A model generated the notes under the pieces. That model made no database searches. It worked only from the letters and a program-made list of their open reading frames with translations, and was not told the DNA's origin. Position numbers and translations under genes: made by a program. Below, one piece after another: positions 1,537-17,224 of a stretch of DNA of 64,000 bases. Each line of letters starts with the position of its first letter. Within the stretch, counting starts at the first letter, position 1. Origin of the DNA: an uncultured Alphaproteobacteria bacterium (GTDB lineage: Bacteria; Pseudomonadota; Alphaproteobacteria; SHVP01); contig CAZTAK010000001.1 in NCBI GenBank assembly GCA_964611585.1, positions 11,132 through 75,131 on the forward strand, in the 5' to 3' direction.

Positions 1537-2442
1537 TTAGTGCTGCGATTCGATCAGTTCGACCAGCCAGCCTTCCGGGGCGCGGATGGTCAACGCCGCA
1601 CGCCCGTCATAGGGCGCCGCGGCCGGACGCACCGGCGCAGACAAGGCCATTCGCTCGAACGGTTCGACCGACGGCACCGCGAGGCTCGCCAGCGCAAAGC
1701 CGGGCGGCAGCGCCCCCGGAGAGACCGGGCGATCCGCGGCGCGATGCGGATACTCGTCCACCTGAATCAGACTTTGACCGGTCAGTTGAAGTGTCGTCAT
1801 CGACAACGGATTGGCGCGCACATGGCCGTACCTGTCGCCTTCGTGGTAGACGCCGCGCTCATGCGCCGGCCGCGGGGAAATCGCGAATTTCACCGAGAGC
1901 CATTCGAGGGTTTCCTCGAACGAACGGGTCGCCAGCACCGCAATGAAGACCCGGTCCACCAGAGAGGCCGCGGCGGGCAAATCAAACCCCTGCACCGATT
2001 CGGGCAACGTCGTCAGGTAAAGGACTTCGCCGGCGGGCCCGATGGCTTGGGTGGCGCGGATCTCGGGAAAATTCTTGAGGCTTTGCGGCGGACCGATGAT
2101 CTCGAACGGCGAATCGATCAGCCGCGCGGCAACGGCATCGGTATCGCGAACCAGAATCTCGATGGCGGACCAGCCCGGGGTCGCCAGCGGCCGGTAAGCG
2201 GGATCGGCGGGTTGCTCGACCAGCCGGATGCCGCCGGGAGCGCCGCTTGCGGGCTGCATCCACACCGTGGCCGCGCCCGCCGCTTGCGGCGCGCCCCACG
2301 ATTCCGCCAGCTCGACCGGCACCTGTCCGGCGGACGTTTCGACGTAACCGAAGATGCGGGTATAGAGCGCTGCCGCTGCCGCCGCGTCCGGCACAGCGAC
2401 CGTCGCGGCAACGATCGGCCCCGCCCCGGCAACCGAATTCAA
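1537..2442 (-). CDS. VOC (glyoxalase/bleomycin-resistance/dioxygenase) superfamily protein, two-domain
   Basis: 301-aa ORF with GC-biased third positions typical of genes here. It shows two glyoxalase-like halves and no overlap conflict apart from antisense artefacts. Confidence 0.5.
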   Translation of the reverse strand: MNSVAGAGPIVAATVAVPDAAAAAALYTRIFGYVETSAGQVPVELAESWGAPQAAGAATVWMQPASGAPGGIRLVEQPADPAYRPLATPGWSAIEILVRDTDAVAARLIDSPFEIIGPPQSLKNFPEIRATQAIGPAGEVLYLTTLPESVQGFDLPAAASLVDRVFIAVLATRSFEETLEWLSVKFAISPRPAHERGVYHEGDRYGHVRANPLSMTTLQLTGQSLIQVDEYPHRAADRPVSPGALPPGFALASLAVPSVEPFERMALSAPVRPAAAPYDGRAALTIRAPEGWLVELIESQH

Positions 2443-5266: not shown

Positions 5267-6094
5267 ATGGACGCGCCAGACATGCCCACCTTGAAAGGAA
5301 AGTGCGCATTGATCACCGGCGGAGGACGCGGCATCGGCCGCGCCATCGCCGAACGCCTCGCTGCCGACGGCGCCGCCGTCGTGATCGTCGATTTCAACGG
5401 AACCACGGCCAGCGAGACCGCCCGGGCCCTCAGCGAATCGGGCGCGCGAGCCGCGTCGTTATGCGCCGATGTCGCTAATCCTGAAGCCGCCGCCGAGGCG
5501 ACGGCCCTTGCGGTAGGCACCTTTGATGGGCTCGACATTCTGGTCAACAACGCCGGCATCGCGCCCAACCGCCGCGTCCTCGACACCACTCTCGAGGAAT
5601 GGGAACGCGTCCTGCGCGTCAACCTGACCGGAACGTTTCTGTTTTCCAAAGCGGCCGCGCCGGCAATGGCTGATCGCGGCGGCGGAAAGATTGTCAATAT
5701 TGCGTCCGTTTCGGGGCAGCGCGGCGGCGTCGGGCGCGGCGCCTATGGAACCTCCAAGGCCGGCATCCTGATGCTGACGCGGATCATGGCGGTCGAATTC
5801 GCGTCCCTGAACATTGCCGTCAACGCCATCGCGCCCGGGCCGATCCGGACCGGCATCACCGATCACAGTGAAGGCACGGTAGCAGGCTACCTCGACCGGA
5901 TACCGATGCGGCGCTACGGCACCACGGACGCGGTGGCCGCCGCTGCCGCCTATCTCGTGTCCGAGGATTGCAGCTATACCACCGGGACGACGCTCAACGT
6001 GGACGGCGGGTTCGACGCCGCCGGGCTGATTTTTTCGCAAGACGAGCTGCGTGCGGCGGACCCGGCGCCGCGCGGCGCGGAAGGGATTCGATGA
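5267..6094 (+). CDS. SDR-family oxidoreductase (FabG-like)
   Basis: It has the TGGGRGIG Rossmann motif, NNAG, and the S...Y..AYGTSK catalytic tetrad. Its stop TGA overlaps the ATG of the next gene (ATGA). Confidence 0.85.
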   Translation: MDAPDMPTLKGKCALITGGGRGIGRAIAERLAADGAAVVIVDFNGTTASETARALSESGARAASLCADVANPEAAAEATALAVGTFDGLDILVNNAGIAPNRRVLDTTLEEWERVLRVNLTGTFLFSKAAAPAMADRGGGKIVNIASVSGQRGGVGRGAYGTSKAGILMLTRIMAVEFASLNIAVNAIAPGPIRTGITDHSEGTVAGYLDRIPMRRYGTTDAVAAAAAYLVSEDCSYTTGTTLNVDGGFDAAGLIFSQDELRAADPAPRGAEGIR

Positions 6095-7782
6095 CCAGCA
6101 AGATCACCGACGAAAATGCATTCTGGCGGACGCCACCGGGGGTTCAACGCGGCTACACGCAGGCGCGCTTCGGGCAGATTCATTACCGTTTCGCCCGCCC
6201 CGCCGAGGCGACCCAAACGCCGCTGATGTGCTTTCACCTGAGCCCGAGTTCGGGCCGGATCTACGCCCGCTTCCTGGCGGAAATGGGCAAGAACCGCCTG
6301 GCGATTGCCCCGGACACGCCGGGCTTCGGCGATTCGGACGTTCCGGCGGAGCCGCCCGAGATTGCCGACTACGCCGCCGCGATGGGCGAGGTTCTGGACG
6401 CGCTGGAAATCGAGACGGTCGATCTGATGGGCTATCACACCGGGTCGAAAATCGCGCTCGAACTCGCCCAACAACGCCCGGCACAGGTTCGCCGCGTGGT
6501 ACTGGTTTCGGCGCCGATCTATTCCGACGAGGAACTCGAAAGCCAGAAATCCCACTACGCCGGGCGCGAGGCCGACGACGCGGGCGATTTTCTCAAAGCG
6601 GCATGGGACGGACAGAAGCGCTGGCGCGCCAAGGACGCCCCCGACATTTTCGTTCACCGCGAGGTGGTGGAGGCGCTGCGGGGCGTCGACCATTCGTGGT
6701 GGGGCCATCGTGCCGCATTCCGCTATCCTCACGCCGACGCCCTGCCCAAGGTGCGCCAGCCGGTAACAATCCTGTGCCCGAAGGACGATCTGTACGAGCA
6801 AACTCTGCGCGCGGCGGATTACATCGACAACGGGCGGCTTCTGGAACTGCCGGACTGGGGCGGCCACGGCATGCTCGACATGCACACGGGCGAGGTCGCG
6901 CAAATCGTGCGGACGGTGCTGGACGGCCCCGAAGAGGCGCACCAACCGGCCGCCGCAAAGCTCGCCCCCGATCCCAGGCCGGGTGCCGACACCGGCTTTC
7001 GCAAGCGGTTCATCGACGGGCCCTACGGGCAGATTCATTTGCGCTATTCCGGGCCCGGAGCGCCCGCAGCGGCACCGCTTTTCTGTTTCCATTCGAGCCC
7101 CAATTCGGGCCTCAAATACAGCGCGATCCTCCGCATGCTGGGGCAGGAACGCACTGTCGTCGCCGTCGATACGCCCGGCTTCGGCGAATCCGAGGCCCCG
7201 GCCAAACCGCCCGAGATCGAGGACTATGCCACCACCATGGCCTACGTCATCGAAACCCTGGGCGCCGGGCCGGTCGACATCATGGGCTATCACACCGGAT
7301 CGGAAACCTGCATCGAGCTCGCGCGCCAGCGCCCCGACCTGGTGCGCAAGATCGTCATGAACTCGGCGCCGATCTTCAGCGATGAAGAACTCCAAGGGTT
7401 CCGCGATCTCTACGCGCCCGATCCGATTGCCGCGGACGGGTCGCACCTTGTCAGGTTCTGGCAACGGATGATCCCGTTCTACGGACCGACGGTGCCGCAC
7501 CCGATTCGGCAACGGAATTTCGCCGAAGGTCTGCGCGGCGGACCGATGTCGCACTGGGGCCACCGGGCCGCATTCAATTATCCGCTGGCGAAGAAGATGG
7601 CGGAGGTCGAAAACGAAATCCTCGTTATCAATCTCGACGACGACTTGAGAGAGCAGACCAAGCAAGCCGAAGGCATATTGCGCAACGGCCGCATTCACAC
7701 CATCGAAAAATACGGTCACGGCTGGTTCGACATCATTCCCGACGAAGCCGCGCGCATCCTGCGCGAATTCCTCGACGCTTGA
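6091..7782 (+). CDS. tandem-duplicated alpha/beta-hydrolase-fold protein (two ~280-aa repeats) with a non-canonical nucleophile elbow
   Basis: There is a clear internal duplication (LMCFHLSPSSG..DTPGFGDSD..DLMGYHTGSKIALELA // LFCFHSSPNSG..DTPGFGESE..DIMGYHTGSETCIELA). The HGXP-like and GxNuxG elbow positions read G-Y-H-T-G, with His where the Ser/Asp nucleophile normally sits. The gene is translationally coupled to the SDR gene. Confidence 0.8.
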   Translation: MTSKITDENAFWRTPPGVQRGYTQARFGQIHYRFARPAEATQTPLMCFHLSPSSGRIYARFLAEMGKNRLAIAPDTPGFGDSDVPAEPPEIADYAAAMGEVLDALEIETVDLMGYHTGSKIALELAQQRPAQVRRVVLVSAPIYSDEELESQKSHYAGREADDAGDFLKAAWDGQKRWRAKDAPDIFVHREVVEALRGVDHSWWGHRAAFRYPHADALPKVRQPVTILCPKDDLYEQTLRAADYIDNGRLLELPDWGGHGMLDMHTGEVAQIVRTVLDGPEEAHQPAAAKLAPDPRPGADTGFRKRFIDGPYGQIHLRYSGPGAPAAAPLFCFHSSPNSGLKYSAILRMLGQERTVVAVDTPGFGESEAPAKPPEIEDYATTMAYVIETLGAGPVDIMGYHTGSETCIELARQRPDLVRKIVMNSAPIFSDEELQGFRDLYAPDPIAADGSHLVRFWQRMIPFYGPTVPHPIRQRNFAEGLRGGPMSHWGHRAAFNYPLAKKMAEVENEILVINLDDDLREQTKQAEGILRNGRIHTIEKYGHGWFDIIPDEAARILREFLDA

Positions 7783-7799
7783 CGGGACAAAGCCGCCCC

Positions 7800-9470
7800 A
7801 TGACACGAATTACCCGCCATTTCGTGACCGTGGGTACGCGCCGGGTGCATTACCGGCGCGCGGGATCGGGGCCCCCGGTAGTGATGCTGCACCCGAGCCC
7901 AAGCTGTTCAGGCAGCCTGACTGGCACCATCGATGTGTTCGCGAAGGCCTTCACCGCCATTGCGCTCGATACGCCCGGTTATGGGCTCTCCGATCTGTTG
8001 CCGATGGAGCAGCCGGAGATCCCCGATTTCGCCGAAGCGCTGGCCGAAACCCTCGATGCGCTGGGCATCGAACGCTGCGGCGTGTTCGGATCGCACACCG
8101 GCGCCTCTATCGCCATCGAATTTATCCGGCGCTATCCCGAACGCGCCTCGATCACGGTGTTCGACGGCTACCCCGGCTATACCGACGACTATCGCGCCGA
8201 CATGCTGGAATCCTACCTGCCGCCCTACGTTCCGAAGTGGGACGGGACTCATCTGTTGACGACGTGGATGAAGTACCGCGAGCAATTCCTCTATTCGCCC
8301 CCCTTCCGGCACCACAAGGAAAACCGCTCCAACGCAGTGCCGCGCGATCCGGTCACGACTCAGGCCGCTGTGACGCCCCGGTTGATGACGGGACGGAACT
8401 ACAACATCGGCTACTCGTCGGTGTTCCGGTACAAGAGCCTTGAGGCGCCGTACGACCTCAAATCTCCCACCTGCTTTGCCGCGCGTGAGGACGATTCGCT
8501 GGTCAGGTCGCTCGGCCTGCTGGACGATTTGCCCGAGGGCTGCTGGAAGGAAGTGCTGGGACGCGACGAGGCCGCCGCCGCCGAACGCTATGCGGAGATC
8601 TTGGCCGAGCGGCTGGAACCGGGCGATACGCCGGCCCCGCCCGACCCGGAAAACCTGCCCGGCCGGGTGCAATACTCCTACACCGATTTTGGCGCCGGCC
8701 AGGTGATGGTGCGCCGCGCCGGCAATGGCGACCGGCCCCTGGTGATGATGCCGCCTCTGCCGGGCACCTCGGACCTTCTCGAGACGCTGATGCTCGCGCT
8801 CGCGCCCGCGCGCGCGGTTATCGCGTTCGACCCGCCGGGCAACGGCGATTCGGACGACTTCCTGCCGCACACGATCGAAGCGTGCGCCGGCGCGCTGGGC
8901 CAGGTTGCAACCAAGCTGGCGGTGGGCGAATTCGACCTCTATGGCCGCAATGCGGGTGCTTCGGTGGCAGCCGCGTTCGCGCACGCCAACCCGGACCGCG
9001 TCGGCAAACTGATTCTCGACGCGCCGCTGGCCCTCGACACTGCCACGGCGGAGGCCTGGCAGGCCGGCTACGCCCCCGCCATCGAACCGAAATGGGACGG
9101 ATCGCACCTGATCGCGCTCTGGCATCAGCTCCGGGCCGAACAATTGTTCTCGCCGTGGTTCAACGAAACAGCCGCAGGCATTCGCGACGTCGAACCCGAA
9201 ATCGACCCCGATTTTCTGTCGCAAAAACTAACCGGCATCCTCAAGCATTACGGCACCTATCACGAATTCTGGGATGTGGCGTTCGAGTATCCAGGGCTCG
9301 ACACGCTGTCTCGTATCGGCCACACGACCCTCGTTTGCGCGCGCAAGAACGACCTGTTCGCCGCCTTCGCCGATGACGCCGCCGAAGCCGTTCCGAAGGC
9401 ATCGCGCGCCACCCTTCCGGCGGAAACACAGGGTGCCGCGCGCGTCATCGCGGAATTCCTGGATTCCTGA
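7800..9470 (+). CDS. tandem-duplicated alpha/beta-hydrolase-fold protein, paralog of the upstream gene
   Basis: It has the same two-repeat architecture (VVMLHPSPSCSG..DTPGYGLSD..FGSHTGASIAIEF // LVMMPPLPGTSD..DPPGNGDSD..LYGRNAGASVAAAF). Alternative TTG start at 7779 overlaps the upstream stop; ATG 7800 was chosen. Confidence 0.75.
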   Translation: MTRITRHFVTVGTRRVHYRRAGSGPPVVMLHPSPSCSGSLTGTIDVFAKAFTAIALDTPGYGLSDLLPMEQPEIPDFAEALAETLDALGIERCGVFGSHTGASIAIEFIRRYPERASITVFDGYPGYTDDYRADMLESYLPPYVPKWDGTHLLTTWMKYREQFLYSPPFRHHKENRSNAVPRDPVTTQAAVTPRLMTGRNYNIGYSSVFRYKSLEAPYDLKSPTCFAAREDDSLVRSLGLLDDLPEGCWKEVLGRDEAAAAERYAEILAERLEPGDTPAPPDPENLPGRVQYSYTDFGAGQVMVRRAGNGDRPLVMMPPLPGTSDLLETLMLALAPARAVIAFDPPGNGDSDDFLPHTIEACAGALGQVATKLAVGEFDLYGRNAGASVAAAFAHANPDRVGKLILDAPLALDTATAEAWQAGYAPAIEPKWDGSHLIALWHQLRAEQLFSPWFNETAAGIRDVEPEIDPDFLSQKLTGILKHYGTYHEFWDVAFEYPGLDTLSRIGHTTLVCARKNDLFAAFADDAAEAVPKASRATLPAETQGAARVIAEFLDS

Positions 9471-9491: not shown

Positions 9492-10487
9492 TTGAACGAT
9501 CCCGGGCAACAAGAAGTTCTCGTCATCAAGCACGGTGCGCTCGGCGATATGGTGCTGGCGACCGGCCCCTTCGGCGCCATCCGGGCGCATCACGCGCGCG
9601 CGCACATCACCTTGCTGACGACCAGCGCCTACGCGGAAATGATGCAGGGCTCGGGTTGGTTCGACGAAATCTGGATCGACAGCAAACCCACGCTCTGGCA
9701 ACCCGGCGACTGGTTGCGGCTGAGGCGGATGCTGCGCGGCGGGAACTTCGCGCGGGTCTACGACCTGCAGCACAGCGATCGAACTCATATGTACTACCGC
9801 CTGCTCGGCCGGCCGCGCCCGGAATGGTCGGGGATCGCCAAAGGTGCCTCGCACCCCCACACCAACCCCGACCGCGATTCGATGCACACCATCGAACGCC
9901 AAGCCGAACAACTTGCCCAGGCGGGAATCGCGAAAACCCCGCCGACCGATATTTCTTTTCTTGCCGCCGACCTGACGCGGTTACGGCTCGGGGACCGGTA
10001 CGCGCTGCTGGTCCCCGGCGGCGCCCGCCACCGGCCCCGCAAGCGCTGGCCCGCGGGCCGTTACGCGGCGCTGGCGGGTTGGCTGGCCAATCGCGACGTG
10101 CGGCCGGTGCTGATCGGGACGCTCGAGGAACAGGATGTCCTCGACGAAATCGCCGACCGCGTGCCCGCAACTCTCAACCTGTGCCAGGACACCACCTTCG
10201 CCGAGATTGCCGAACTCGCCCGCCACGCCATCGCCGCCGTCGGCAACGACACCGGCCCGATGCACCTGATCGCGGCCGCCGGATGCCCCACGGTGGTGCT
10301 GTTTTCGGCGGAATCGGTGCCGGCGCAAACCGCGCCGCGCGGCGAGGCCGTGACGATTCTCGAGGCGAAAACGCTGGAAACGATGGCGGTCGCGCGGGTT
10401 CTTGTGGCGCTCAAGGATTTCGATCCGGCCTTTTCGCGCGAAGCCAAACCAGGCGAGACCCTGGGGGAGAGCCCCGAGACCGGCTGA
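9492..10487 (+). CDS. glycosyltransferase family 9 (ADP-heptose:LPS heptosyltransferase-like)
   Basis: VLVIKHGALGDMVLATGPF at the N-terminus and the C-terminal GNDTGPMHLAAAAGCPTVVLF motif are characteristic of GT9. The probable start is TTG, 22 nt after the upstream stop. Confidence 0.8.
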   Translation: MNDPGQQEVLVIKHGALGDMVLATGPFGAIRAHHARAHITLLTTSAYAEMMQGSGWFDEIWIDSKPTLWQPGDWLRLRRMLRGGNFARVYDLQHSDRTHMYYRLLGRPRPEWSGIAKGASHPHTNPDRDSMHTIERQAEQLAQAGIAKTPPTDISFLAADLTRLRLGDRYALLVPGGARHRPRKRWPAGRYAALAGWLANRDVRPVLIGTLEEQDVLDEIADRVPATLNLCQDTTFAEIAELARHAIAAVGNDTGPMHLIAAAGCPTVVLFSAESVPAQTAPRGEAVTILEAKTLETMAVARVLVALKDFDPAFSREAKPGETLGESPETG

Positions 10488-10561
10488 CCCGCCGCTGCGG
10501 CCTTGCGCCCACCGGCTCGCACGGGCCACAATCGGCGCATCAACCGCCGGAGGATTGAACC

Positions 10562-11134
10562 ATGCCGAACCCCGTATTGCCGCGCGTTGCGCGCGAGGAC
10601 ATGCCCGAAGTCTTGCGGCAGGGCTATGACACCGCGAAAGAGGTGCGTGGCGACGCGACCTTCTTCGAGATCGGCGCGCACGCCCCCGAAATCCTGGACT
10701 GGTATCACAACAGCTTCTATTCGCGCGTATTCTACGGCGGCAAGGTGGACGTGAAGATCAAGGAACTTCTGCGCTACCGCCTGTCGATGACCCATGGCTG
10801 CGCGTTCTGCAACAAAGGCAACCGGCTCGCCGCCATCAAGGCGGGCGTAACCGAGGACCAGTTCCACAACATCATGAACGAATCGAGCGATGTGTTTTCG
10901 GACGGCGAGCGTGCGGTGCTGAAACTCGCCGATCAGATCGCCATTCCCAACATGCACGGCAATCTCGACAAGGCGCTCTATGACGCCCTGCGGCCCCACT
11001 TTTCCGACGGTGAAATCTTCGAACTCGGCGTGACCGCGGCGGTTCTCACCGGCATGGCGAAGTTCCTGTTCGTGTTCGATCTGGTCGAAAAGGAAGCAAA
11101 CTGCCCGATCGTGCCGCGCCAGGCGGCGGAATAG
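10562..11134 (+). CDS. carboxymuconolactone decarboxylase / AhpD-like family protein
   Basis: It carries the CMD-family core with a HGCAFCN (CxxC) motif and is about 190 aa. Confidence 0.8.
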   Translation: MPNPVLPRVAREDMPEVLRQGYDTAKEVRGDATFFEIGAHAPEILDWYHNSFYSRVFYGGKVDVKIKELLRYRLSMTHGCAFCNKGNRLAAIKAGVTEDQFHNIMNESSDVFSDGERAVLKLADQIAIPNMHGNLDKALYDALRPHFSDGEIFELGVTAAVLTGMAKFLFVFDLVEKEANCPIVPRQAAE

Positions 11135-12939: not shown

Positions 12940-14217
12940 ATGGGAATGACGCTTTCCGAGAAGATAATCGCCAGGGCCTGCGGGCAGGATTCGGTGCGGC
13001 CGGGTGAAATCGTGACCTGCAAGGTCGATCTCGCCATGACCCACGATTCGAGCGGGCCGCGCCGCCAGGCGCCGCGCCTGAAGGAACTCGGCGTCAAGGT
13101 GTGGGACCCGGACAAGGTGGTGATCCTTACGGATCACTACGTTCCGGCGGTCGATGCGCTGAGCGCGGAGATCCTCAAACTCACACGCGACTGGGTCAAA
13201 GAACAGGGGATAAAGAATTTCTACGACATGCAGGGCATCTGCCATGTCGTGCTGCCCGAGCGCGGCCACCTGCACCCGGGCCAGTTCGCCGTCGGCGGTG
13301 ATTCCCACTCGCCCACCGGGGGCGCGTTCGGGACCTTCATGATCGGGGTCGGCGCCACCGATATGACCGGCGTTCTGGCGACCGGCGAAATCTGGGTCAA
13401 CGTACCGCCGACCATCCTGGTGCGCTGGACCGGCGATCTTCCCGAATACGTCACCGCCAAGGACATGATGCTGCGGCTGTGCGGCGAGATCGGCCTTAAC
13501 GGCGCCAACTACAAGGTCGTTGAGTTCGCCGGCAATGGCGTGAGCGCGCTCTCGATGGACGAACGCATGGTGCTGCCCAACATGACCGCCGAAGTCGGCG
13601 CCAAAACCGGCATCATTGCCCCCGACGCGGTGACGGTGGAATGGCTAAAAGCCGCGGGCGCGGAAACAGCGGGCGCGCTGGACTGGTTTTCGGACGAGGA
13701 CTGCGAGTACGAGAGTGTGTTGGAATTCGATGCCTCCACACTGTCACCACAGGTGGCGGCGCCGCACAGTCCGGCCAATGCCGCGCCGGTAGAGGACTTC
13801 AAGGACGTTGCCGTCGATCAGGCCTACATCGGCGCCTGCACCGGCGCGAAACTCGAAGACCTGCACATGGCGGCCGAGATCGTCCGCGGCCAGACCGTCG
13901 CCGAGGGAACGCGCTTTCTGGTGGCGCCCGCCTCAACGCGAATTACGGCGCAAGCCGCCGCCGACGGGACGCTGGCGACGCTGACCGCGGCAGGTGCAAT
14001 CTTGCTGCCGTCCGGTTGCGGCGCGTGTGCGGGCCTCGGCGCGGGCGTGTTGTCGGCAGGCGAGACCTGCATCTCGTCCACCAACCGTAATTTCAAGGGC
14101 CGCATGGGCCCCTCGGACGCTTCCGTTTATCTGGGATCGCCCTATGCAGTGGCGGCCGCGGCGGTGGCCGGGCACATCGCCGATCCCCGCGACATCAGCA
14201 ACCGGAGGGCATCATGA
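12940..14217 (+). CDS. aconitase-family dehydratase large subunit, archaeal-type LeuC-like (LeuC/homoaconitase/dimethylmaleate hydratase family)
   Basis: The 425-aa product aligns along its length with small-type LeuC (MGMTLSEKI, VDLAMTHD, GGDSHSPTGGAFG, the Fe-S cysteines in SGCGACAG and ISSTNRNFKGRMG). Confidence 0.85.
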   Translation: MGMTLSEKIIARACGQDSVRPGEIVTCKVDLAMTHDSSGPRRQAPRLKELGVKVWDPDKVVILTDHYVPAVDALSAEILKLTRDWVKEQGIKNFYDMQGICHVVLPERGHLHPGQFAVGGDSHSPTGGAFGTFMIGVGATDMTGVLATGEIWVNVPPTILVRWTGDLPEYVTAKDMMLRLCGEIGLNGANYKVVEFAGNGVSALSMDERMVLPNMTAEVGAKTGIIAPDAVTVEWLKAAGAETAGALDWFSDEDCEYESVLEFDASTLSPQVAAPHSPANAAPVEDFKDVAVDQAYIGACTGAKLEDLHMAAEIVRGQTVAEGTRFLVAPASTRITAQAAADGTLATLTAAGAILLPSGCGACAGLGAGVLSAGETCISSTNRNFKGRMGPSDASVYLGSPYAVAAAAVAGHIADPRDISNRRAS

Positions 14218-14720
14218 GCGGTACGGACGGCGGCGGCACCGCCTGGGTCTATGGCGACGACATCGACACGGATTCGCTGGCGCCGGGGCTCTATCTCAAA
14301 GGGTCGATGGAGGAGATGGCGAAGCATTGCCTCGAAGCGATCGACCCCACCTTCGCCGCCGAATCCAAGGAAGGCGACTTCGTGGTGGCGGACGAGAATT
14401 TCGGCATCGGTTCGTCGCGCGAACAGGCGGCGCAGTGCCTGTCGATATTGGGCGTCAATGTGGTGCTGGCCAAGAGTTTCGCGCGTATCTTTTACCGCAA
14501 CGCTTTCAACGTCGGTGTCGTGCCGCTGGTGTTCAAAGACGCGGACAAAATCAAGAAAGGCGACCGCCTGCGGGTCGATGCGGCTGCGGGCACGATCGAA
14601 AATCTTACCAGGAACGAGACCTACACCTGCGAGACCGTACCACCGCACCTGATGGAAATCGTTGCCGACGGCGGCCTGATGCCGCATCTGAAAAAGAAAC
14701 TGAAAGGAAAAACGACGTGA
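14214..14720 (+). CDS. aconitase-family dehydratase small subunit (LeuD-like)
   Basis: ATGA overlap with the upstream stop. The product has the LeuD-like swivel domain (VYGDDIDTD, GIGSSREQA). Confidence 0.85.
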   Translation: MSGTDGGGTAWVYGDDIDTDSLAPGLYLKGSMEEMAKHCLEAIDPTFAAESKEGDFVVADENFGIGSSREQAAQCLSILGVNVVLAKSFARIFYRNAFNVGVVPLVFKDADKIKKGDRLRVDAAAGTIENLTRNETYTCETVPPHLMEIVADGGLMPHLKKKLKGKTT

Positions 14721-15601
14721 CCGATTATCAATCGCTCAAGAGCCAGCTTGCAGGCGATGACATCATCGTCGCGCCCGGCTGCTATGACGCCTATTCGGCA
14801 ATGATGATCGCCAAGGCCGGCTTCAGCGTGGCCTACATCTCCGGCGCCGGCGTGTCGTTTACGCGCATCGGACGTCCCGATATCGGCCTGGTCAGCATGC
14901 ACGAAGTGGCCGAGACCGTGAGCGCGATCGCAGAATTCAACGACATCCCGCTGGTCATCGACGGCGATACCGGATTCGGTAATGCGCTCAACGTAATGCG
15001 CACGGTGCGCCTGTTCGAACGCGCGGGCGCGAGCGCGATTCAGCTCGAAGACCAGACCATGCCCAAGCGCTGCGGTCACCTGAGCGGAAAGTCGCTGGTG
15101 CCGGATGCGGAAATGGTCGGCAAGATCAAGGCCGCGACCGACGCACGGCGCTCGGACCAAACACTGATCATCGGCCGCACCGACGCGATCGCGGTCGAGG
15201 GGTTCGAACGCGCGCTCGAGCGCGCCGAACGCTACGTCGAGGCGGGCGCGGACGTCCTGTTCATCGAGGCGCCGCAGACCGACGATCAGATGAAGGCCCT
15301 GACGGCGCAGTTCAAAGGCCGGGTCCCGCTCCTGGCGAACATGGTCGAGGGCGGCAAGACGCCGCTGAAAAGTGCGGCCGAGTTGCAGGCGCTCGGCTAT
15401 TCGCTGGTGATTTTTCCGGGCGGGCTGATCCGGGCCTATTCGTTCATGGCCGCGGAATACCTGAAGAGTTTACGCGAAAACGGCACCACGGCGCCCTACC
15501 GCAACCGGATGCTGGATTTCGATCAGCTCCAGGAGGTGCTGGGAACGGCCTCGGTGCTGGAGGCGGGCGGGCGCTACGACGCCGAGAACTTCGAGGCCTG
15601 A
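14717..15601 (+). CDS. isocitrate lyase/PEP mutase superfamily lyase (2-methylisocitrate lyase / 2,3-dimethylmalate lyase-like)
   Basis: The GTG start overlaps the LeuD-like stop (GTGA). The product carries the ICL/PEPM signature KRCGH plus DGDTGFG and IEDQ. Confidence 0.8.
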   Translation: MTDYQSLKSQLAGDDIIVAPGCYDAYSAMMIAKAGFSVAYISGAGVSFTRIGRPDIGLVSMHEVAETVSAIAEFNDIPLVIDGDTGFGNALNVMRTVRLFERAGASAIQLEDQTMPKRCGHLSGKSLVPDAEMVGKIKAATDARRSDQTLIIGRTDAIAVEGFERALERAERYVEAGADVLFIEAPQTDDQMKALTAQFKGRVPLLANMVEGGKTPLKSAAELQALGYSLVIFPGGLIRAYSFMAAEYLKSLRENGTTAPYRNRMLDFDQLQEVLGTASVLEAGGRYDAENFEA

Positions 15602-15629
15602 CAAGCGAGGCATACGAAGCGGACGCGCG

Positions 15630-16496
15630 ATGACCGAACGCTTCACGTTTTCGAGCCCGGACGCCCTGGCGGCACGCATCCCTGACGGCGCGCACCTGGC
15701 GATCCCGGCCGACCGGCGCGGCGTGTCGATGGCAACGACGCGCGCCCTTATCCGCCGCAGCGCGCGCGATCTCCGGCTCGTCGCCGTCCCCACCAGCGGG
15801 CTTCAGGCTGATCTCCTGATCGGCGCCGGCGCAGTCGCCGAAATCGAAACATCGGCCGTCTCGCTGGGCGAATACGGCCCGGCGCCGCGGTTTGGCGAGG
15901 CCGTCGAGCAGGGACGCATCGTCATCTTGGACGCTACCTGCCCCGCCATTCACGCCGGATTGCACGCCGCCGAAAAAGGCATCCCGTTCATGCCGCTCAG
16001 GGGAATTCTGGGCTCGGACCTGCTGGTCCACCGCCCCGACTGGACAGTGATCGAAAATCCCCTGGGGCCGGTGCCGGAAGAACGGCCCGGCACCACGGCA
16101 GAGGACTTTGCCGATCCCATCGTCATTCTGCCGGCGATCCGGCCCGATTTCGCGCTCTTTCATGTGCCGCTCGCCGACCGGGCCGGCAATATCTGGGTCG
16201 GGCGCAACCGCGATCTCATTACCATGGCGCATGCGGCGCGCGAGACCCTGGTGACAGTGGAAGCAATCGCCGATCACGATCTCATGGCCGATCGCGAATG
16301 GGCGGCGGGGACGCTTTCGTCGTTCTATGTGAGTGGCATCGCCGTTGCCGAGAAGGGCGCCTGGCCGACGGCGATGCCGGGCACCTACGAAGAAGACGCA
16401 GAGCACATGCGCCGCTACGCCGAACAAGCCCGCAGCGGCGAGGGATTCGCGGCCTACCTCGAGGAATTCGTTTTTCAGGACCTTTCCCTCGGGTAG
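15630..16496 (+). CDS. CoA-transferase family I, subunit A
   Basis: The 288-aa product resembles glutaconate/3-oxoadipate CoA-transferase A subunits. It sits immediately upstream of the B subunit. Confidence 0.7.
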   Translation: MTERFTFSSPDALAARIPDGAHLAIPADRRGVSMATTRALIRRSARDLRLVAVPTSGLQADLLIGAGAVAEIETSAVSLGEYGPAPRFGEAVEQGRIVILDATCPAIHAGLHAAEKGIPFMPLRGILGSDLLVHRPDWTVIENPLGPVPEERPGTTAEDFADPIVILPAIRPDFALFHVPLADRAGNIWVGRNRDLITMAHAARETLVTVEAIADHDLMADREWAAGTLSSFYVSGIAVAEKGAWPTAMPGTYEEDAEHMRRYAEQARSGEGFAAYLEEFVFQDLSLG

Positions 16497-16501
16497 CGCT
16501 C

Positions 16502-17224
16502 ATGGATGCCGGGCCCGAAGAGTTCCTGATCTGCGTCATCGCGCGGCTTCTCGCCGGCACGCGCCATATCGCGGTCGGCGCCCTGTCGCCGATACCCGGA
16601 TCGGCGGCGCTGTTGCACCAGGCTGAGAGCCGCGAGCCGGTTCGCGTCTCGGTTCTCGACAGCCGGCGCAATTTCTGGTCGGACGGCAGCAAGGAACTGT
16701 TCGACTGCGCGGCGCAGGGACGCATCGACGCCTTTTTCCTCGGCGGCGCCCAGATCGACGGCCAGGGCAACGTCAACCTCGTCGGCGTCGGTGGTTATCC
16801 CCGGCCGAAGACGCGCTTTTCGGGATCGTTCGGATCGGCCTATCTCTATTTTCTCGTGCCGAGGGTGATTCTGTTCCGAGAGGAGCACACGCCGCGGACG
16901 CTGGTCGATAAAGTCGATTTCATATCGAGCCCCGGAACGAGCCCGGACAACGTCTATCGCCGCGGCGGGCCCTCGGCGCTGGTGACGGGAAAAGCGCTGT
17001 TCACCTTCGATGAGGCGGGGCGCCGCTTTCGCCTCGCCAGCAGCCATCCGGGATACACCGCGCCGGACATCGAGGCGGCGACAGGATTTGCCTTCGAGAC
17101 GCCTGCCTCGGTCCCGGCAACAGCGGCCCCCGATGCGGCCACGCTCAATCTGTTGCGGGGACCCGTGGCCCGCGAGATCGCCGAGACCTACCCCCGCTTC
17201 GCCGCACGGGTTTTCGGCGACTAA
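16502..17224 (+). CDS. CoA-transferase family I, subunit B
   Basis: The ATG lies 6 nt after the subunit A stop. The B-subunit-like sequence (GGAQIDGQGNVNLVGVG) is present. Confidence 0.65.
   Translation: MDAGPEEFLICVIARLLAGTRHIAVGALSPIPGSAALLHQAESREPVRVSVLDSRRNFWSDGSKELFDCAAQGRIDAFFLGGAQIDGQGNVNLVGVGGYPRPKTRFSGSFGSAYLYFLVPRVILFREEHTPRTLVDKVDFISSPGTSPDNVYRRGGPSALVTGKALFTFDEAGRRFRLASSHPGYTAPDIEAATGFAFETPASVPATAAPDAATLNLLRGPVAREIAETYPRFAARVFGD

Follow-up and report, generated by a model that had tools for sequence, protein, structure and literature searches.

The alpha/beta-hydrolase fold is among the largest and most engineered enzyme scaffolds, and Ser, Cys and Asp are the accepted nucleophiles of its elbow. 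Haloalkane dehalogenases, fluoroacetate dehalogenase and the Cif-like epoxide hydrolases, many of which are dimeric, provide the precedent for an elbow residue other than Ser, which in these enzymes is Asp. In haloalkane dehalogenases the halide is stabilised by the x residue of the HG-x-P motif and by the residue that follows the nucleophile, and in epoxide hydrolases the epoxide oxygen is held by cap residues about 50 and 90-100 positions past the nucleophile, which in the Cif-like enzymes are a His/Tyr pair. Here we describe two adjacent genes, g1 and g2, that follow a short-chain dehydrogenase/reductase (SDR) gene in a 64,000-nucleotide stretch of DNA from an uncultured Alphaproteobacteria bacterium (contig CAZTAK010000001.1, positions 11,132 to 75,131); this whole stretch is referred to as the window. 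Each gene encodes two fused alpha/beta-hydrolase domains, designated g1N, g1C, g2N and g2C, and both genes are members of a distinct, previously unrecognised and sizeable clade of the fold that is marked by His at the nucleophile elbow.

The haloperoxidase/aryl-esterase/enol-lactonase group, represented by chloroperoxidase F (1a8s), the P. fluorescens esterase and PcaD (2xua), shares 16-24% identity with the g1/g2 family; its members have a single domain and a Ser nucleophile, whereas the clade described here has tandem domains and an invariant His. Among the best matches in the Protein Data Bank (PDB) over strands b1-b6, the lactonase AidH (E = 1e-10) was followed by the dehalogenase/Cif-like group (E = 1e-7); the halide-binding Trp/Asn or ring-opening Tyr pair of the latter does not occur in that form in the g1/g2 clade. 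Assignment to several curated families was considered and rejected. PcaD (TIGR02427) scored 91 bits against a cut-off of 255.85, with a match to residues 30-140 only and no elbow Ser, and the haloalkane dehalogenase models (NCBIfam NF002873 and NF002938) scored 81 against 466 bits and 71 against 241 bits, with His and no Asp nucleophile at the elbow. PHA depolymerase, AcoC, HsaD, MenH, BioH and other curated families were far below their cut-offs, with matches that fell mostly within b1-b6.

Four tandem domains and the register of the nucleophile elbow

Pfam searches found two Abhydrolase_1/6 stretches in each protein, and PF00561 scored 90 bits for g1 and 53 bits for g2 against a cut-off of 25.8. 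Pairwise BLASTP gave 42% identity between g1N and g1C (E = 3e-71) and 31% identity between g2N and g2C (E = 2e-22), and the cross-gene domain pairs were 24-29% identical (E = 1e-21 to 4e-12). AlphaFold2 models were built with family alignments, and their secondary structure was assigned by DSSP. The predicted local distance difference test (pLDDT) and predicted template modelling (pTM) scores were 95.3 and 0.93 for g1 and 95.7 and 0.93 for g2, and the pTM value in both models makes the packing of the two domains confident. Both models had the canonical strand/helix order of the fold, with an eight-stranded sheet and a strand-turn-helix nucleophile elbow. A preliminary description of this DNA had proposed four homologous alpha/beta-hydrolase domains, two per gene, and the Pfam matches, the BLASTP alignments and the models all agree with it.

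The register of the elbow was checked in three ways. By DSSP on the models, one residue alone separates strand b5 from helix aC in each domain, namely residues 116 and 401 in g1 and residues 99 and 384 in g2; the flanking elements are strand 110-115 and helix 117-128 in g1N, strand 395-400 and helix 402-413 in g1C, and strand 93-98 and helix 100-111 in g2N. In phmmer alignments with solved enzymes, the His of GYHTG aligned with the Ser of AidH (GWSLG), PhaZ (GWSMG) and CesB (GLSLG), with the Ala of the S98A XhpG mutant, and with the Asp of haloalkane dehalogenases (HDWG). When E. coli RutD was aligned by BLASTP over the full length, three elements matched at once: the elbow, the DD that follows b7 and the GGH of the loop behind b8. 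According to these alignments and models, His116, His401 and His99 occupy the true Ser/Asp nucleophile position, which in the fourth domain is taken by Asn384. No Ser, Cys or Asp was present inside the G-x-Nu-x-G pentapeptide of any of the four domains, so that neither g1 nor g2 has a canonical elbow. The earlier reading of His in the elbow of three domains and G-R-N-A-G in the fourth is therefore supported both by the translation and by the three register checks, and the canonical Ser or Asp that a careful alignment might have revealed was not found. Because the phmmer, RutD and DSSP registers agree, an ordinary Ser/Asp hydrolase with a misread elbow was rejected as a practically negligible possibility.

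The other triad positions distinguish the two genes. Both g1 domains carry His-Asp-His at the three triad positions, where the elbow His is joined by D232 and H259 in g1N and by D517 and H543 in g1C. In g2 the Asp after b7 is present (D232 and D518), and the b8 His is absent from both domains. Ser51, which lies in the b3 motif of g1N, stands at the position of the halide-binding Asn in haloalkane dehalogenases. The coordinates of the genes, domains and site residues are collected in Table 1.

Table 1. Genes, domains and site residues of the locus, in positions of the window.
Feature	Position	Strand	Description and basis
SDR gene	5282..6094	+	SDR oxidoreductase of the classical type; the apparent operon starts with it
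g1	6091..7782	+	563 aa, two fused alpha/beta-hydrolase domains, F1 type
g1 N-domain (g1N)	6091..6948	+	aa 1-286; domain HMM, alignment, DSSP topology
g1N b3 motif H49-L-S51-P	6235..6246	+	Corresponds to the HG-x-P oxyanion motif
g1N elbow G-Y-H116-T-G	6430..6444 (His codon 6436..6438)	+	Translation, alignments, DSSP
g1N cap motif W-W-G-H206-R	6697..6711	+	Alignment, translation
g1N D232-D233	6784..6789	+	Loop after b7 (b7 = 225-229), canonical acid; aligns with RutD DD
g1N His259	6865..6867	+	Loop after b8, canonical catalytic His; aligns with RutD GGH
g1 C-domain (g1C)	7003..7779	+	aa about 305-563; domain HMM, alignment, DSSP
g1C elbow G-Y-H401-T-G	7285..7299 (His codon 7291..7293)	+	Translation, DSSP
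g1C D517-D518	7639..7644	+	Acid position after b7
g1C His543	7717..7719	+	b8-loop His
g2	7800..9470 (start probable)	+	556 aa, two fused alpha/beta-hydrolase domains, F2 type
g2N elbow G-S-H99-T-G	8088..8102 (His codon 8094..8096)	+	Translation, DSSP
g2C degenerate elbow G-R-N384-A-G	8943..8957	+	Translation, DSSP

Conservation of the elbow His and its surroundings

The g1-type (F1) family contained 221 homologues, 120 of which were analysed (42-100% identity, all of about 560 aa and with two domains), and the g2-type (F2) family contained 619 homologues, with elbow residues counted in 120. His116 and His401 were each present in 120 of the 120 F1 homologues, and the Asp after b7 was present in 119 of 120 in each domain (D232 and D517). 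The b8 His was kept in 81-83% of F1 domains (His259 of g1N in 97 of 120, with Met in 17; His543 of g1C in 100 of 120, with Tyr in 12) and was otherwise replaced by Met, Tyr or Asn. The N-domain of F2 proteins had the elbow His in 118 of 120 sequences, the Asp in all 120 and the b8 His in none, and the elbow of their C-domain drifts (N in 78, G in 14, Q in 13 and H in 9). Counted by domain, the elbow His was present in 240 of 240 g1-type domains and in 117 of 118 g2 N-domains. In the 148 best-matching clusters (50% identity), 149 of 185 domains carried the elbow His, and the others had G, Q, R, A or N, with one Ser and one Asp.

When about 700 domains were aligned to one hidden Markov model (HMM), 572 had the elbow His and 130 did not, and several polar residues were found to vary together with it. 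Residue 51, the x of HG-x-P, was Ser or Thr in 546 of the 572 elbow-His domains and Ala, Leu, Val or Ile in the domains without His. Residue 117, which directly follows the nucleophile position, was Thr in 552 of 572 and Gly or Ala in the non-His domains, and cap position 206 was His or Tyr in 534 of 572 (93%) and Trp in 97 of the 130. In g2C the equivalents of Ser51, Thr117 and the cap His/Tyr are lost together with the elbow His. The cap DG(S/T)HL His and Trp172 are retained in the degenerate domains (the DGSHL His in 128 of 130), and because of this retention both are probably structural.

The His-elbow tandem clade is defined in this analysis and is not a curated family. Its signature consists of four elements, namely the G-x-H-T-G elbow, H-x-S/T-P at b3, the cap motif DG(S/T)HL and the Asp that follows b7. 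This signature was found in g1N (apart from cap position 167, see below), g1C and g2N, and g2C keeps DGSHL and the Asp alone. Because the polar constellation is co-conserved in three domains and is lost as a whole in g2C, the sequence comparison indicates that the three domains are probably functional sites and that g2C is a pseudo-site. The preliminary description had left a choice between non-canonical catalysts and pseudo-enzyme or binding modules; three of the sites look functional, and it is g2C that the pseudo-site reading fits.

The Ndr family is known as one without the catalytic triad, and its profile (PF03096) gave a weak match to g2 of 27 bits against a cut-off of 23.3, which covers profile positions 58-132 of 283 only and lies under a stronger Abhydrolase_1 match; g1 scored 18 bits, below the cut-off. 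This match is one reason to consider that all four domains may be pseudo-enzymes or binding modules that act as ligand sensors, scaffolds or enzyme partners. None of the four has a canonical nucleophile, neither domain of g2 has a b8 His, g2C has clearly degenerated, and non-catalytic members of the fold are well known (PMC3531081). Against this, the elbow that drifts among N, G, Q and H in g2C is His, and 98-100% fixed, in the other three domains, where it is accompanied by the polar constellation and by the Asp/His triad positions. The expansion of paralogues and the catabolic and redox neighbours also look enzymatic, and we regard a family made up of pseudo-enzymes as rather unlikely.

Proposed function of the elbow His

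The explanation that we favour, and to which we give about an even chance on the comparison of sequences, is that g1 and g2 represent an uncharacterised clade with three real sites in which the elbow His would act non-covalently, with g2C as a structural pseudo-site and with a catabolic role. The three domains would be active or ligand sites for a small polar molecule that is probably anionic or carbonyl-bearing. The elbow imidazole would serve as a general acid/base or as a hydrogen-bond or charge partner, and in g1 the His259-Asp232 pair may act as its relay. Ser51, Thr117 and His/Tyr206 would, by homology, surround the His116 imidazole, and the hydroxyls of Ser51 and Thr117, together with backbone amides, would form an enlarged oxyanion/anion pocket. 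A classical acyl-enzyme would not be expected. The fused pairs may mimic the dimers that are common in the fold, and g2, as a half-degenerate paralogue, would combine a variant site with a structural pseudo-site. Given the apparent co-transcription with the SDR gene and the redox and catabolic neighbours that are found family-wide, the likely role of the proteins would be a step of the hydrolase, lyase or isomerase type in the catabolism of small molecules.

Three features of the alignments favour a non-covalent role for the elbow His. It is invariant where the b8 His is absent, as in all F2 N-domains and about 18% of F1 domains; some relatives with Gln, Arg or Asn at the elbow still keep Ser51 and Thr117; and the cap contains several conserved Arg, His and Glu residues. 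The alternative is covalent catalysis, in which the elbow His would be the nucleophile of a His-His-Asp relay and a phospho-, sulfo- or acyl-histidine would form in the oxyanion hole. The placement of His-Asp-His exactly at the triad positions of both g1 domains is consistent with such a relay, and a tetrahedral oxyanion would be well accommodated by the hydroxyls at 51 and 117 together with the conserved Arg/His of the cap. The His-His-Asp triad, which is the usual mechanism of the LPT lipid phosphotransferases (PMC13133130), is a precedent from an unrelated family. However, the b8 His that the relay calls for is missing in 249 of the 572 elbow-His domains (about 44%), including all F2 N-domains, in which the elbow His is still invariant. 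The relatives that have Gln, Arg or Asn at the elbow and keep the rest of the site also argue against a covalent His, and phosphatase-type neighbours were not seen in the related loci. Covalent catalysis is therefore unlikely in our judgement, and we view with the same scepticism the wider proposal that His is a fourth nucleophile class of the fold, which would work through His-His-Asp with the tandem domains as an obligate pseudo-dimer.

The number of conserved His residues also raises the question of a metal site. Each F1 domain has four or five conserved His and one Asp, and a metal could be bound jointly by the His of the elbow, of the b8 loop and of the cap (DGSHL and WGHR) and by the Asp, in a metallo-hydrolase or oxygenase. 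The DGSHL His, however, is probably structural, given its retention in nearly all degenerate domains, and the F2 N-domain has Tyr in place of the cap His206 and no b8 His. To our knowledge a metal site of this kind has no precedent within the alpha/beta-hydrolase fold, which also counts against it, and we consider this explanation very improbable.

Several observations weigh against the favoured non-covalent explanation as well. The g1N domain of the window has Phe at the consensus cap His167. The geometry of His116, His259 and Asp232 and the orientation of Ser51, Thr117 and His206 are taken from fold homology. Ordinary proteins with this fold likewise conserve the b3 His and the Asp that follows b7, for structural reasons. 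Many members have lost the b8 His, and these could be non-catalytic. Finally, the gene neighbourhood varies across the family, with at least five distinct contexts, and yields no clue to the substrate.

Size, distribution and naming of the clade

A phmmer search with g1N against 1.84 billion cluster representatives returned at least 272 clusters at 50% identity with E <= 1e-30 and 2000 with E <= 1e-10. The clade comprises thousands of sequences, nearly all of which come from metagenome-assembled genomes (MAGs), and a scan of one genome per GTDB species gave at least 488 relatives, again nearly all in MAGs. The carriers are Alphaproteobacteria (mainly Rhodospirillaceae-like), Steroidobacteraceae/Acidibacter, Nevskiaceae, Woeseiaceae and some Chloroflexota, and some aquatic alpha- and gammaproteobacterial MAGs have six or more paralogues. 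Humitalea sp. 24SJ18S-53 was the sole cultured carrier seen.

The names given to homologues are all generic, either 'pimeloyl-ACP methyl ester carboxylesterase' or 'alpha/beta hydrolase', and the first of these labels is almost certainly misleading. No specific Pfam or NCBIfam model and no solved relative of the clade was found, and literature searches on the GXHXG motif, on His at the nucleophile position, on tandem hydrolase domains and on His-His-Asp returned nothing on it. The possibility, allowed for in the preliminary description, that this is a well-characterised enzyme class was thus not borne out by the profile, PDB or literature searches.

Evolutionary history of the tandem domains

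In both genes the N-terminal half has the C-terminal half as its closest relative, and vice versa. Family-wide, the mean identity was 0.43 between the N- and C-domains of F1, 0.27 between those of F2, and 0.25-0.27 between F1 and F2. An intragenic duplication followed by duplication of the whole gene had been suggested earlier for g1 and g2, but the identity within each gene (42% and 31%) compared with that between the genes (24-29%) does not support this order of events. Because the halves are closest within each gene, a single internal duplication followed by a gene duplication does not fit, and the sequences fit instead a history in which tandem gene pairs were fused, either in separate events for F1 and F2 or at different dates, or one of concerted evolution.

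Relatives with a single domain (about 270 aa) and the same H-H-D-D-H signature occur as lone genes or as adjacent pairs. The pairs have 4-nucleotide overlaps and are often made up of an F1N-like gene followed by an F1C-like gene, as in eight of the loci examined. The family therefore offers a series from a single gene through a translationally coupled pair to a fused pseudo-dimer, with one half-degenerate paralogue, and this series is a useful case for the study of pseudo-site origin. In eight other loci, three-gene arrays of the family were seen that consist of two fused genes and one single-domain gene. In these arrays Met, Tyr, Val or Arg stands in place of the b8 His and Gly in place of the second Asp, but the elbow His is retained without exception.

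The arrangement of the locus found in the closest genomes is c15(-) ... SDR-F1a-F1b-HtpX-MT ... F2a-F2b. The g1 gene is the orthologue of F1a (58% identity) and g2 is the orthologue of F2a (52-54% identity). Given this arrangement in the closest relatives, the window is a condensed version of the SDR-F1a-F1b...F2a-F2b locus, and g1 and g2 are not a direct duplicate pair.

Organisation of the locus and gene neighbourhoods

The SDR gene, g1 and g2 form one apparent operon and would be co-transcribed. The ATG of g1 overlaps the stop codon TGA of the SDR gene as ATGA (a 4-nucleotide overlap), and a GGAAGGG ribosome-binding site lies 5' of this ATG. The SDR protein matched Pfam adh_short_C2 with 220 bits, and in NCBIfam it had generic matches only (SDR/glucose 1-dehydrogenase subfamily). 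The g1-g2 pair is present on four independent assemblies, and it is therefore no assembly artefact. On all four, the gene callers start g2 at ATG 7800 and not at TTG 7779, the start that had been implied earlier. The domain search found no further copies of the hydrolase domain in the window, the tRNA and Rfam scans of the window gave no matches, and the promoter and terminator scan gave a signal at background level. Two antisense open reading frames, at 5974..7806 (-, 610 aa) opposite g1 and at 7908..9224 (-, 438 aa) opposite g2, encode Arg/Ala/Gly-rich products whose conservation merely mirrors that of the sense genes, and they were rejected as genes because they are shadow reading frames typical of DNA with 64% G+C.

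Neighbouring genes were clustered over 83 loci. Genes of the family most often have a second gene of the family, in the same orientation, as their neighbour, and an SDR gene is adjacent or near in 24 related loci. The other recurrent neighbours are FAD_binding_2 oxidoreductases, acyl-CoA-dehydrogenase-like flavoproteins, an NmrA-like NAD(P)-binding protein and an S-adenosylmethionine (SAM) methyltransferase of 360-400 aa; the SDR, FAD and methyltransferase neighbours recur loosely only. In Humitalea sp. 24SJ18S-53 the F2-type gene lies in an operon, behind the genes for an AMP-binding ligase and a class II aldolase. Overall, the gene context points to redox-linked small-molecule metabolism.

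The methyltransferase has Methyltransf_25/11/31 matches and an uncharacterised N-terminal extension, and it lies within a few kb of His-elbow genes, including those of Humitalea sp. It was observed in the window at about 17378 and about 18143 (+), in the Humitalea locus at 9897..10973 (-), and in at least 15 related loci. Its proximity could hint at methyl-ester chemistry, a link that is loose.

A conserved syntenic block was observed in Rhodospirillaceae MAGs, at 11 of the loci, in which an acetyl-CoA synthetase (ACS) gene is followed at some distance by HtpX, a single-domain gene or overlapping pair of the family, an NmrA-like gene and an RsmB-like methyltransferase gene. The N-terminus of the NmrA-like representative resembles a signal peptide. 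Such a block suggests that the family has a core copy which is inherited vertically. The c15 family (about 300 aa), which is encoded in the window at 1537..2442 (-) and in seven other loci, matched no Pfam model and had no relative by sequence in the PDB; it is found repeatedly upstream of SDR-F1 loci, and in other MAGs it occurs as arrays beside methyltransferases. Farther downstream in the window, at about 12940..17200 (+), are genes for aconitase-like large and small subunits, a protein of the PEP-mutase/isocitrate-lyase family and CoA-transferase subunits A and B, preceded by GT9 heptosyltransferase-like, CMD/AhpD-like and RidA-family genes. No link between the aconitase-like/CoA-transferase cluster and g1 or g2 was seen.

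Comparison with known systems

E. coli RutD, an aminoacrylate hydrolase (3v48), has been described as an enzyme in which His substitutes for the canonical Ser in the sequence GHALG (PMC3531081). In our own alignment, contrary to that statement, the central residue of RutD GHALG is Ala and the His is at the position before the nucleophile. RutD is therefore no precedent for the His-elbow clade, and it differs from g1, in which the His is central, also in having a single domain. Assignment of g1 and g2 to the RutD family (TIGR03611) was rejected, with a score of 67 bits against 238.5, GYHTG compared with GHALG, and no rutA/B/C/E/F genes adjacent.

The degenerate elbow of g2C resembles that of ABHD5, which has Asn at the nucleophile position; no specific homology was found, and the other three domains are not degenerate. 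The lack of a catalytic Ser in ABHD5 (CGI-58) is documented (PMC11878206). With respect to the rest of the site, Ser51, Thr117 and His/Tyr206 of the clade correspond to the positions that hold the leaving group in dehalogenases and epoxide hydrolases. In the LPT/PAP2 enzymes one His of the triad acts as the nucleophile, and the residue types of this triad are the same as those in g1; these enzymes have an unrelated membrane fold, and the likeness is a mechanistic analogy only. The His-elbow clade either widens what the alpha/beta-hydrolase fold can catalyse or puts the fold to a new, ligand-binding use.

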